From positions 1 to 27,909 of the forward strand of contig CAZDTP010000053.1 of assembly GCA_964508365.1 (NCBI GenBank): 27,909 nucleotides of DNA, read 5' to 3'. Positions 20,031 to 27,909 of this stretch are shown here, one piece after another. How positions within the stretch are numbered: position 1 is the first letter of the stretch; each line of letters opens with the position of its first letter. The stretch is from an uncultured archaeon (GTDB taxonomy: Archaea > Asgardarchaeota > Lokiarchaeia > Sigyniarchaeales > SOKP01). The notes beneath the pieces were generated by a model. The model did not search any database. It saw only the letters and a program-made list of their open reading frames with translations, and was not told the DNA's origin. Made by a program: the position numbers and the translations under genes.

Positions 20031-20272
20031 TTCTCACCCTCCTTGAGTTCTAAAGCTCCATACAGACAATAATTTGCACATTGTCCGCAGTGAGTACATC
20101 CATCCAAGAATGAGATTTTGGGGATCAATTCGTAGATGTCAACAATTTGAATATAAGCTTCAGTAGGGGAATATTTATTTTTATATATGGAAGAACAGAT
20201 TAATTGACAGATTCTACATCCTGTACATCTTTCTACATGTATAATTATCTCATTTAATTTAGATTTTACCAA
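20027..20272 (-). CDS. 2[4Fe-4S] ferredoxin, probable AOR electron partner
   Basis: CTGCRICQLIC and CTHCGQCANYC. TTG start. Its TGA stop overlaps the AOR ATG (ATGA), with SD GGAGG. Confidence 0.9.
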   Translation of the reverse strand: MVKSKLNEIIIHVERCTGCRICQLICSSIYKNKYSPTEAYIQIVDIYELIPKISFLDGCTHCGQCANYCLYGALELKEGEK

Positions 20273-24685: not shown

Positions 24686-25291
24686 TTAATAAGCCATTAA
24701 GAGAAGAATGAATGCCACCATGATGATTGTTCCACTGACAGGAGTTATCCAAGTAAAAATAACAAACCCAATGATTAGTACAACCCACCATGAATAAGGT
24801 ACTTTGATATCGATCTTGTCAAATAGCGTTAGCAATAAAACTATCGCAAAAATAATCCCTACTATTGCTATTGCGATATTTCCCCCCAGAATAAACATTA
24901 TTGATTCATAAATTAAATAACCAGCACCAATCAATGCAACTATTTTTGAGGCAGTATATGATTTCTTCTGACTTAGTATTTCTATTATTGCTGCTATTAT
25001 TACTAAAATCCCTGCTAGAAATGAAGGTCCTACTAAATACTCAAAGAGTAGAAGAACGATTCCTATGATAAGTAGGACCCACCATATATAAGGAATCTTG
25101 ATCTTCTTAAAATCAATTATTTCTAACGAATCAAATATAAAAAATGCAATAATTAAGCCTAAAATCCCAAATATAATGGCTACCCAGTACGCTGTGTAAA
25201 AATAGAAAATGCTATCTCTGATTAAGATTAACGTACCAATAAGAGCAACAACTTTAGAGGCTGAAATTCCAACTTTAGAGCTTTCACCCAT
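24686..25291 (-). CDS. Polytopic membrane protein (about 8 TM) made of two tandem ~103-aa repeats
   Basis: ASKVVALIG...KIPYIWWVLLIIG (from aa 11) and ASKIVALIG...KVPYSWWVVLIIG (from aa 114). Almost entirely hydrophobic. Confidence 0.8.
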   Translation of the reverse strand: MGESSKVGISASKVVALIGTLILIRDSIFYFYTAYWVAIIFGILGLIIAFFIFDSLEIIDFKKIKIPYIWWVLLIIGIVLLLFEYLVGPSFLAGILVIIAAIIEILSQKKSYTASKIVALIGAGYLIYESIMFILGGNIAIAIVGIIFAIVLLLTLFDKIDIKVPYSWWVVLIIGFVIFTWITPVSGTIIMVAFILLLMAY

Positions 25292-25322
25292 AATTTCTCA
25301 CAAAAATTTGTTAAACTCTATC

Positions 25323-25342
25323 CTAATTCTATATAGAACTAG
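25323..25342. promoter_or_regulatory. Near-perfect 20-bp palindrome upstream of the membrane protein gene, candidate operator
   Basis: CTAATTCTATATAGAACTAG, with perfect 12-bp core TTCTATATAGAA (25327..25338). It lies 32-51 nt upstream of ATG 25291 and downstream of a TATATATA box (about 25369-25377). Confidence 0.35.
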
Positions 25343-25397
25343 AATATAACTAAAACTAGAAATTCACATATATATATTTTTATAACAATTTATATTA

Positions 25398-25420
25398 GAA
25401 GTTTAATAGGGTTAAACTTC
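25398..25420. repeat. 9-bp inverted repeat with 5-nt loop downstream of the SECIS
   Basis: GAAGTTTAA-TAGGG-TTAAACTTC. On the minus strand it is preceded by T-rich tracts. It could be a terminator/stability hairpin or an operator. Confidence 0.5.
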
Positions 25421-25454
25421 AAAAAATTAAAAAATTGGGGATAAAACTGTTTTT

Positions 25455-25523
25455 ACCGAAACCATTGCAGAATGGTCCGTCTTCTCGCGACTAAAATTTT
25501 CTCGCAAAAATCATTCTCTCGGT
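25455..25523 (-). ncRNA. Eukaryote-type SECIS element (cis-acting RNA) in the 3' UTR of the hdrA-mvhD operon
   Basis: RNA: ACCGAG AGA AUGA UUUUUGCGA GAAAAUUUUAG UCGCGAGAA GA CGG ACCAUU-CUGC-AAUGGU UUCGGU. Helix I is ACCGAG/UUCGGU. The core is AUGA...GA (tandem G-A kink-turn). Helix II is 9 bp. The apical loop carries unpaired AAAA. It starts immediately after the mvhD stop. Confidence 0.85.
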
Positions 25524-25997
25524 TTAATCTTTTTTCTTTTTTTCTTCAGAATCTTTTTTTTCTGCTTCTATTATTAGAGATTCTTTAATAGGATTGGTGC
25601 CTAGATTCTCTATTATTTCAGATATTCGGGTGACTTCTTCTTGAAATTTTTGGCCTTCAGCTGCACTACAGTTAAACATTTGGATTCTCTCCGGAGCAAC
25701 TCCGGTTGTTTTTAGAATTTCCCTTGTATATTCTACATTTTTAGCTGCTACTAAATTCCCAGTTTCATAGTCGCACTCTCCTTCGTATCATCCAGCAACT
25801 ATTACACCATCTGCTCCCTTTCCAATAGCTCTCATTATTAAGCTAGGTGTAACTCTTCCAGTACAATTTATTCGTATGGGTCTAATTGTTGCGGGATATT
25901 GAGCTCTAATCGTTCCGGCCATGTCTCCAGCGCCATAACCTCATTTCCAACACATAAAGGCTAAAATCTTTACTTGGTCTTTTACCTTCGCTGTCAT
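25524..25997 (-). CDS. mvhD: Hydrogenase iron-sulfur subunit delta (MvhD/VhuD), selenoprotein with two Sec residues, 157 aa; absent from the ORF track
   Basis: Manual translation: MTAKVKDQVKILAFMCWK-U-GYGAGDMAG...QYP...IRINCTGRV...GKGADGVIVAG-U-YEGECDYETGN...PERIQMFNCSAAEG. In-frame TGA at 25941-25943 (codon 19) and 25788-25790 (codon 70), both at conserved [2Fe-2S] Cys positions. SD GAGGTG at 26004-26009. TAA at 25524-25526. Confidence 0.93.
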
Positions 25998-26010
25998 ATT
26001 TTACACCTCT

Positions 26011-27909
26011 CTATATCTCTTCCAATATAGCATCAATTTGCTTCTCGTATTGGGGTTCACGATAGTATCTTAAAGTTATTGCTTCTGAGGGACAATTAGC
26101 TAAACAAGAACCACAACCTCTACATAGGATTTCATTGACTTCAGCACCGTCGGATTCAACTTCAATAGCGTTATAAGGGCAATTCAGTTGACATAATCCA
26201 CACTTCGCACATTTTTCATTATCGACAGTTGCACGAATTAAGAGAATTCGGTATTTATCCTTCAGCATTAATCTTGCTAAAGAAGATGCCGCAGCTCTCC
26301 CTTGCGCTATTGATTCTGAAATCGATTTTGGCCCTTGAGATACACCAGCTAATACTATTCCCGGAATTTTAGTGTCGATAGGATTTAAGCGCGAATGAAA
26401 TTCCTTGAAAAATCCATCGTGGCTTTTTTCAAGTTTCAAAATCCTCGCTAGCTTTTCTATCCCTTTAGCTGGTACCATAGCATTAGATAAAACAACCAGA
26501 TCATATTCAAATTCTTTTAATCCAGTAGTTCCAACAGTGTTTTGTAATATTACCTTAAGATTGTGCGTTTTGGGATCCTCTTTAAGTCTGGATACATTTG
26601 TTCTGATGTATCTTATTCCTTCTTTCCTTGAAGCTGTGAAGTATTCCTCGTAATCTTTCCCAGCAGCTCTTATATCCATGTAAGCTACAGTAACATCAAT
26701 ATCCGGAGCGTGTTGTTTGATGAGTTTTGTGTTCTTAACGGAGATCATACAACACACACCTGCACTACAGTAAGTATTCCTCGTTAAATCTCTTGATCCA
26801 ACGCATTGAATAAACAGAACGCTTTTAGGTTTTTTTCCATCAGAAGGACGTTTTAAGTGCCCAACAGTAGGTCCGTTTGGCGCTAATATTCTTTCAAGTT
26901 TTAATTGAGTGATTACATTAGGGTAGACATTATAACCTAAATAACCCGTTTCAGGTTCGTATTCGTCCCATCCCGTTGCTACAACTATAGTACCAACCTC
27001 AATTTCTAAAATTTCGTCTTCCTGGTCGAAATCAATTGCATCAACCTCACACGCTTTCTCGCATAGGTTACACTTGATGCATTGCGTCATATCGATTTGT
27101 GCTAACATCGGAACTGCTTGCGCAAACGATGCATATATAGCTTTTCTAGGATTCAGTCCTTCGTTAAATTCGTTATATCCGTAAGCAGGACAGACTTCCC
27201 AACAAGCACCACAGCCGTTACATTCGTTAGTTACATATCTTGCTTTTTTCCGGATTCTAACCTTAAAATTACCTACAAATCCAGTTACTTCTTCAACTTC
27301 ACTATAGGTATGTAAGTTTAACCCCGGGGTTCTAACTGTTTGGAGCATTACTGGGCCGAGGATTCATATGCTACAATCGTCCGTAGGAAAAGTTCGGTCA
27401 AGCTTTGCCATTTTTCCACCTATTGTAGGTTTTTTCTCTACTAAGTGCACATCAAATCCTTCTTCGGCTAGATCTATTCCTGCAGATAATCCCGCGACTC
27501 CACCACCAATAATAAGAGCTCTTTTTGTTATATCTACTTCTCTAATGAGAATTTTCTCTAAGGTAGCAGCTCGAGCGACTCCCGCGCGAATAGCATCTTC
27601 GGCTGTACTTTTAGCTCCGGGTATATCATTTCTATGAACGAAACTTGAGTGCTCTCGAATATTAACGAATTCTAAATATGATGGATCCAAATTCATCGAC
27701 TCTAATACGCTTTTGAAAACAGGTTCATGCGTTTTTGGAGTGCACGAAGCCATAAGCAATCGATTAGCGTTAAATTCAATCATCTTTTCTTTTATAAACT
27801 CAGCACCGGACTGTGTGCATAGAGAGATATAATCTATTGCTTCAACGACGTTCGGTAAAGTTTTCGAATATTCTGCTAACGCTTTAGTATCTATTATTTC
27901 GGCGATATT
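26011..27909 (-). CDS. hdrA: Heterodisulfide reductase subunit A, selenoprotein (5' truncated by window edge); split into two ORFs in the track
   Basis: One continuous frame from 27909 (NIAEIIDT...SLCTQSG...ASCTPKTHE). It contains the FAD motif IIGGGVAG, then FPTDDCSI-U-ILGP with TGA at 27364-27366 replacing the Cys of DCxxC, ferredoxin inserts CNGCGAC and CIKCNLC, QCVGSRD, YCSAGVCC, and C-terminal CAKCGLC and CRGCGSC. TAG at 26011-26013. Confidence 0.93.

Follow-up and report, generated by a model that had tools for sequence, protein, structure and literature searches.

One SECIS-like element behind mvhD as the probable recoding signal for both cistrons of an hdrA-mvhD selenoprotein operon in a Lokiarchaeial genome

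Recoding of UGA codons in two different cistrons by one selenocysteine insertion sequence (SECIS) was stated explicitly for the HdrA-VhuD pairs of Lokiarchaeota by Mariotti et al. 2016 (PMC4989117), who found no SBP2. Huang et al. 2024 (PMC11227280) repeated this reading and extended it to hundreds of Asgard genomes. The shared-SECIS arrangement is thus already known, from the description of 2016 and the catalogue of 2024. No experimental test of a shared SECIS was found in the literature through to a 2026 review. What comes closest is a reporter study in M. maripaludis, in which an archaeal SECIS worked at 520-679 nt from the UGA (Peiter et al. 2022, PMC9622424). Here we describe the hdrA-mvhD (vhuD) locus of an uncultured Lokiarchaeial archaeon (NCBI: Promethearchaeota). 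The window, that is, the whole stretch of 27,909 nt that was analysed, is one entire contig (C53) of a 4.07-Mb genome with 149 contigs and 31.8% G+C; other contigs of the same assembly are named in the same way below. The relatives of the locus are metagenome-assembled genomes of Promethearchaeota, including isolate bin41 (96% MvhD identity), which is listed as the largest archaeal selenoproteome (PMC11227280). The locus is likely to be a bicistronic selenoprotein operon whose UGA codons are all served by a single SECIS at its 3' end.

The two products are HdrA, the flavin subunit of heterodisulfide reductase, and MvhD, the hydrogenase delta subunit docking to HdrA; HdrA-MvhD is a solved pair. 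Both genes lie on the minus strand, as do all features of the locus given below. The hdrA gene (26011..27909) was truncated at its 5' end by the contig end and comprised 632 codons and a TAG stop (26013-26011), as judged from translation, Pfam matches and orthologues. The Pfam search detected Fer4 (Fe-S) and FAD-binding domains in its product, which aligned end to end with HdrA of Methanothermococcus thermolithotrophicus (PDB 5ODC) with an E value of 8e-192. The in-frame UGA of hdrA (27364..27366) corresponded to residue U182 of the partial protein, in the context DDCSI-U-ILGP, and was equivalent to Cys197 of 5ODC HdrA. It was conserved as UGA in all 19 same-genus orthologues (19/19) and in 59/59 public loci covering the site. 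A gap of 13 nt (AGAGGUGUAAAAU, 25998..26010) containing the Shine-Dalgarno-like GAGGUG separated hdrA from mvhD. The mvhD (vhuD) gene (25524..25997) had 157 codons, with ATG at 25997 and a TAA stop at 25526-25524, and its product matched Pfam FlpD (3e-43) and chain K of PDB 9SFI (1.8e-35). Its first in-frame UGA (25941..25943) was U19 in CWK-U-GYG, a C-x-x-U motif, and its second (25788..25790) was U70 in AG-U-YEGEC; the two sites aligned to the two non-standard 'X' residues in the VhuD chain of 9SFI. In an alignment with the Cys-type hdrA and mvhD paralogues of the genome, Cys was found at all three UGA positions.

A preliminary description of the same stretch, made from its letters alone, had already placed the UGAs, the two genes, the gap and a SECIS-like element, and every one of these coordinates checked out. 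It had also put the three UGAs at conserved Cys positions, which the Cys-type paralogues and Cys197 of 5ODC bear out, and had described the 13-nt gap as filled by the Shine-Dalgarno sequence, which agrees with GAGGUG within 26010-25998. Its expectation that standard gene calling breaks these genes was correct, since under translation table 11 both were split into fragments.

The SECIS-like element belonged to the lokiSECIS type, also called Asgard type I eSECIS-like. Its core (25480..25514) consisted of AUGA (25514-25511), a 9-bp helix II (25510-25502 paired with 25490-25482), an 11-nt apical loop GAAAAUUUUAG (25501-25491) and GA (25481-25480) followed by C (25479). The AUGA began 9 nt past the mvhD stop, and the UGA-to-AUGA distances were 1852 nt for hdrA and 429 nt and 276 nt for mvhD, close to the values of about 1850, 430 and 270 nt given earlier for the single SECIS-like structure after mvhD. 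All characters of the type were present. The AUGA stood directly 5' of the main stem and was invariant among the ten such elements of the genome, the stem had 9 bp and the apical loop 11 nt, and the loop was A-rich at its start and ended in G preceded by A (the AAA and the terminal G were invariant in the ten). A GA followed directly 3' of the stem, and the element lay near where the selenoprotein coding sequence ends. The ten lokiSECIS elements were collected by a genome-wide pattern scan, and each one lay right behind a frame that contains an in-frame UGA. Their hosts were three hdrA-mvhD units, one solo hdrA, vhuU, a Prx-like gene and four small or unknown frames. Alignment of the ten showed compensatory changes at all nine stem pairs. 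This result, together with the position of the ten copies behind UGA-containing frames, indicates that the element of the window exceeds what is expected by chance. A covariance model (R1) was built from the ten elements and detects elements of the lokiSECIS type only. On the genome it recovered all ten and one weak extra match. The window element scored 60.6 bits, a self-inclusive value, and orthologous elements outside the training set scored 44-72 bits.

The search for a second signal dedicated to hdrA gave no further element. With filters off, R1 found one match in the 27.9-kb window, after mvhD, and none in hdrA. A weak match at 20098-20188(+) (18.5 bits, E 0.15) was rejected, because it was antisense to a coding region and had no upstream UGA-containing frame. 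R1 was also run on 21 orthologous loci of the same genus (79-94% HdrA identity), with 1.5 kb of flank where the contig reached so far. One strong match was obtained in each of the 19/19 loci that were complete downstream of mvhD, always after mvhD, and nothing else appeared at E <= 1 in hdrA (contig-cut in two of the loci) or in the 1.5 kb upstream within the contig. Seventy public loci were fetched through MvhD, of which 67 were not cut by a contig end, and all 67 of these again had one R1 match, always after mvhD. In 68 of the 70, hdrA was directly upstream of mvhD on the same strand, with a gap of -1 to 41 nt. The covariance-model scan proposed in the preliminary description, run here on the operon and on the 5' flanks of the orthologues, thus revealed no second element of the lokiSECIS type that could be dedicated to hdrA. 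The genome itself contained three hdrA-mvhD units (C53, C46 and C92) with one SECIS each. A solo selenocysteine (Sec)-containing hdrA (C72:1712-3737) with a C-terminal extension and no mvhD following it had a lokiSECIS 11 nt past the stop of hdrA itself, with about 1.45 kb between the UGA and the element. It is the last gene of a unit, be it hdrA or mvhD, that the SECIS follows.

A model-free structure scan pointed in the same direction. Sliding RNAalifold windows over a 17-sequence alignment of the operon with 300 nt of 5' flank gave a structure conservation index (SCI) of 0.87-0.92 at the SECIS and <=0.39 elsewhere, and no conserved structure was found within hdrA, within the gap or in this 5' flank. 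Third-position entropy right after UGA182 of hdrA was 1.6 bits, compared with a gene mean of 1.07. As synonymous diversity there was above average, no embedded element of the bacterial style appears to be constrained after the hdrA UGA. The hdrA stop was TAA or TAG, never UGA, in 28/28 and 68/68 related loci (TAG in the window), and 13% of the genome's long frames end in TGA. This avoidance is in keeping with a SECIS that would cause a UGA stop in the upstream cistron to be read as Sec.

The number of UGAs in the operon is probably larger than the window shows. Orthologous hdrA has 658 aa, so about 26 N-terminal codons are absent from the window contig, and the 16/16 same-genus orthologues aligned across this region had an additional in-frame UGA (C-x-U) three codons past the contig end. 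Since this UGA is shared by all 16, the operon probably has four UGAs. Judged by the orthologous sequences, the fourth most likely lies just off the contig, about 2.4 kb from the SECIS. The preliminary description had counted three UGAs; all three were seen, and its total is probably one too low. The missing 5' piece of hdrA was not found elsewhere in the assembly by pattern and end-overlap searches. The four closest orthologues (93% identity) had yet another UGA at hdrA codon 31, where the hdrA of the window has Cys. Another hdrA of the genome with two in-frame UGAs (C82:12080-13377) runs off its contig end, and several Sec-hdrA copies were located at contig breaks. About 110 nt upstream of the hdrA AUG, the orthologues had a promoter-like block in common, which suggests that hdrA is the first gene of the unit.

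At the other end of the operon, the first oligo-U tract after it (UUUUUUAAUUUUUU, 25421..25434) is a candidate archaeal terminator. On the coding strand, hdrA had a single U5 run, the gap and mvhD had none, and the first long U tracts came after the SECIS. Metatranscriptome contigs of four studies (short Logan contigs, a small share) covered parts of both genes; none spanned the whole operon and none covered the SECIS and 3' untranslated region (25300-25560), so that they have no bearing on the 3' end. One RNA-library contig, from a relative with 94% identity, bridged the hdrA/mvhD junction. This is weak evidence, as the contig shows neither strand nor transcript ends.

Sec-decoding machinery was found in the genome. 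SepSecS (C19:8417-9574; PF05889, 380 bits) was preceded by the tRNA-Sec (C19:8044-8191(+)), which stood between it and an EFSec-like gene (C19:2090-2977). SelD, itself a putative selenoprotein, had one in-frame TGA (TIGR00476, 195 bits). The EFSec-like gene scored 237 bits with the SelB model, below the curated cut-off of 242, and a PSTK-like gene on C7 scored 154 bits with the PSTK model, below the curated cut-off of 290; both cut-offs were made for other lineages. The tRNA-Sec was located by BLAST with the tRNA-Sec of relatives and read by eye. Its acceptor stem had 9 bp and its T stem 4 bp, with UCA as anticodon and G as discriminator. Two introns interrupted it, of which the one in the anticodon loop had about 25 nt and the one in the T loop 31 nt. 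The 31-nt T-loop intron agrees with the published Loki tRNA-Sec. This gene was missed by aragorn (with and without introns), by RF01852 on the genome, by Rfam on C19:1-18000 and by a structural regular expression. At least 11 same-genus genomes had an uninterrupted tRNA-Sec of 89 nt. Of the five components whose presence the preliminary description had wished to confirm, tRNA-Sec, SepSecS and SelD are present, and EFSec and PSTK are represented by the two below-cut-off candidates.

The anatomy of the locus, its conservation, the absence of another conserved RNA element and the presence of Sec machinery were observed directly. From the sequence data we consider it likely that one 3' SECIS serves both the hdrA and the mvhD cistron. 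Transcription would start at the promoter upstream of hdrA, outside the window and conserved in orthologues, cross the 13-nt gap and mvhD, and end at the oligo-U tract just past the single lokiSECIS. This one 3' element, probably together with EFSec and Sec-tRNA(Sec), would act in cis on any ribosome reaching a UGA at a sufficient distance upstream. It would cover the mvhD UGAs (at 276 and 429 nt), the hdrA UGA (at 1852 nt) and very probably the hdrA UGA about 2.4 kb away. With a single element acting on every upstream UGA, hdrA would therefore have to end in UAA or UAG. The cross-cistron recoding proposed in the preliminary description is supported by the R1 scans, the SCI scan, the synonymous sites, the hdrA stops and the Sec machinery. 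We speculate that the arrangement couples the synthesis of both subunits to selenium supply. If the proposal is true, with recoding of two cistrons over about 2 kb, no other SECIS action that has been proposed reaches so far or crosses a cistron boundary, and the lineage is one that links archaeal and eukaryotic Sec decoding. The locus is a clean, well-conserved and small (2.5 kb) test case, with promoter region (from orthologues), SECIS and terminator defined; it is not a discovery.

Several points weigh against this proposal. The 5' end and 5' untranslated region of hdrA lie outside the assembly, and the 5' part of the argument is built on the sequences of orthologues. These orthologues are related to each other, so the locus counts are not independent. 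A signal without conserved secondary structure, or one acting in trans, would escape both R1 and the SCI scan. Rfam gave no SECIS or any other family in the window at the gathering score, nor in 25200-27909 at E <= 10, and the curated covariance model of the eukaryotic SECIS (Rfam SECIS_1) did not recognise the element. By itself the element is not thermodynamically unusual (fold of the 3' untranslated region against shuffles, z -0.44), and the support for a SECIS thus comes from covariation and not from folding energy. Transcript ends are not visible in RNA contigs, and the libraries may contain carried-over DNA. We infer the single transcript, the action of the SECIS across the cistron boundary and the insertion of real Sec.

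It would be compatible with the conserved 3' element if that SECIS served mvhD only and hdrA had an unrecognised recoding signal of its own, such as a local element in the UGA context, a linear protein-binding motif or a structure unlike the lokiSECIS. R1 sees only elements like the lokiSECIS, so such a signal would not be reported by it. A weak consensus fold did occur around the hdrA UGA (E_ali -3.8, SCI 0.21), but the SCI stayed at or below 0.39 throughout hdrA, the gap and the 5' flank, far from the 0.87-0.92 of the SECIS. Synonymous diversity dipped at hdrA codons 199-218, a dip that comes from only 6-8 codons, whereas directly past the UGA it was above average, and Rfam had no match there even at E 10. 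The solo hdrA on C72 also argues against a private signal: its lokiSECIS lies at the 3' end of the gene, some 1.45 kb away from the UGA, and so indicates a pairing of hdrA UGAs with 3' elements far from them. A separate signal for hdrA is thus very improbable.

Somewhat different is the possibility that the genes are also, or only, transcribed separately, from a promoter within the 3' end of hdrA that would give an mvhD-SECIS mRNA. If this were the sole transcript, the hdrA product would be truncated at its UGA. However, the 1.3 kb of hdrA past the UGA was open, with 79-93% protein identity across 19 genomes, which indicates that this region is translated. TATA-like motifs are everywhere in such AT-rich sequence, and synonymous diversity was mildly lower in the last 20 hdrA codons, so a promoter could be placed there; against this, there is no oligo-U between the genes, the gap is only 13 nt, and the RNA-library contig crosses the junction. 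We regard separate transcription as improbable, and an additional mvhD-only transcript would be compatible with a shared SECIS. Hardly credible is the view that the UGAs are not Sec codons at all and are translated as Cys or Trp, through suppression or an altered code, or mark pseudogenes. In this genome UGA serves as a normal stop codon and closes 13% of long frames, which speaks against a reassigned UGA, a possibility named in the preliminary description. UGA was confined to Cys-aligned sites in known families of selenoproteins, and each came with a SECIS; tRNA-Sec, SepSecS, SelD, EFSec-like and PSTK-like genes are present, and the solved VhuD structure (9SFI) has non-standard residues at the same two sites. 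A single SECIS shared by hdrA and mvhD remains the reading that we prefer.

The lokiSECIS of the window is predicted to sit in a three-way junction (25455..25523), as judged from constrained folds, a shuffle test and the SCI of 0.87-0.92 across orthologues. Helix I (25523-25517 paired with 25461-25455) closes the element, with the bases just 5' of AUGA pairing with a segment 20-30 nt beyond GA. Helix III is a hairpin (25475-25471 paired with 25466-25462, loop CUGC) inserted right after the 3' GA. By constrained folding, the same junction was present in 9/10 lokiSECIS elements of the genome. A first junction detector was too lax (44% of shuffles passed) and was replaced by strict criteria, in which helix III has >=4 bp and helix I >=5 bp, both perfect. 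Under these, 9/10 elements passed, compared with 0.98 expected from shuffled flanks (P ~8e-10). The junction helices vary in sequence between gene families and genera, with pairing kept, and the junction was seen in other genera too. The loop of helix III contained GC in 10/10 elements of the genome and G-Y in a few orthologues. A third helix is not mentioned in the text of PMC4989117 or PMC11227280, and the three-way-junction context of the lokiSECIS may be new. The arrangement resembles the k-junction motif (Wang et al. 2014, as cited in PMC11227280), which likewise has a G.A/A.G kink-turn core and a third helix that branches off the strand opposite the bulge. Here it is known from predicted folds, and the likeness is topological only; the texts of the papers do not describe the lokiSECIS in this way. 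We suggest tentatively that the lokiSECIS, instead of being a plain hairpin of the eukaryote-like kind, might be a three-way junction of k-junction topology, conserved across families and genera, that could dock an archaeal SECIS-binding factor and so enable recoding over more than 2 kb across a cistron boundary. Helix III and its GC loop offer concrete targets for mutation.

Some other lokiSECIS elements deserve a brief description. Two more with three-way junctions were seen at C4:47545-47580(-) and C89:6367-6401(-), after short or unclear frames. A frame at C22:21280-21817 with two adjacent in-frame UGAs (…HAD-U-U-ADN…) ended 8 nt before a lokiSECIS. It had no Pfam match and possibly encodes a so far unlisted selenoprotein containing a Sec-Sec pair. 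In several orthologues of the present locus, the mvhD frame appeared to continue to a UGA within the AUGA core of the SECIS, so that the core would double as a stop, an arrangement published for VhuU.1.

Compared with known systems, the hdrA-vhuD genes of Methanococcales and Methanopyrus encode orthologous selenoproteins in the same synteny, and the two UGAs of their VhuD are likewise served by one 3' element, which also carries AUGA...GAC/AAC. Their SECIS is, however, of the archaeal type with a GAA_A bulge, whereas the element of the window is eukaryote-like and would have to act over >=1.85 kb across a stop and a start codon. With eukaryotic SECIS elements and mRNAs with several UGAs (SelP) it shares the AUGA/GA kink-turn core, unpaired A residues in the loop, a position in the 3' untranslated region and several UGAs at a distance. 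It differs from them in its shorter helix (9 bp), the lack of an Rfam match, the presumed polycistronic mRNA and the predicted third helix after the 3' GA. The published HdrA-VhuD pairs of Lokiarchaeota are the closest. They agree with the locus in gene order and in the very small distance between the genes. In both, Sec falls at the canonical position of HdrA and twice in VhuD, the only AUGA/9-bp/11-nt/GA element stands behind VhuD, and hdrA never stops with UGA. The hdrA of the window has one visible UGA and one inferred beyond the contig, whereas some published copies have up to four. To these pairs the present analysis adds the model-free structure scan and the three-way-junction context. 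The locus is thus an ordinary member of a published class, and its mechanism is plausible and consistent with the comparative data.

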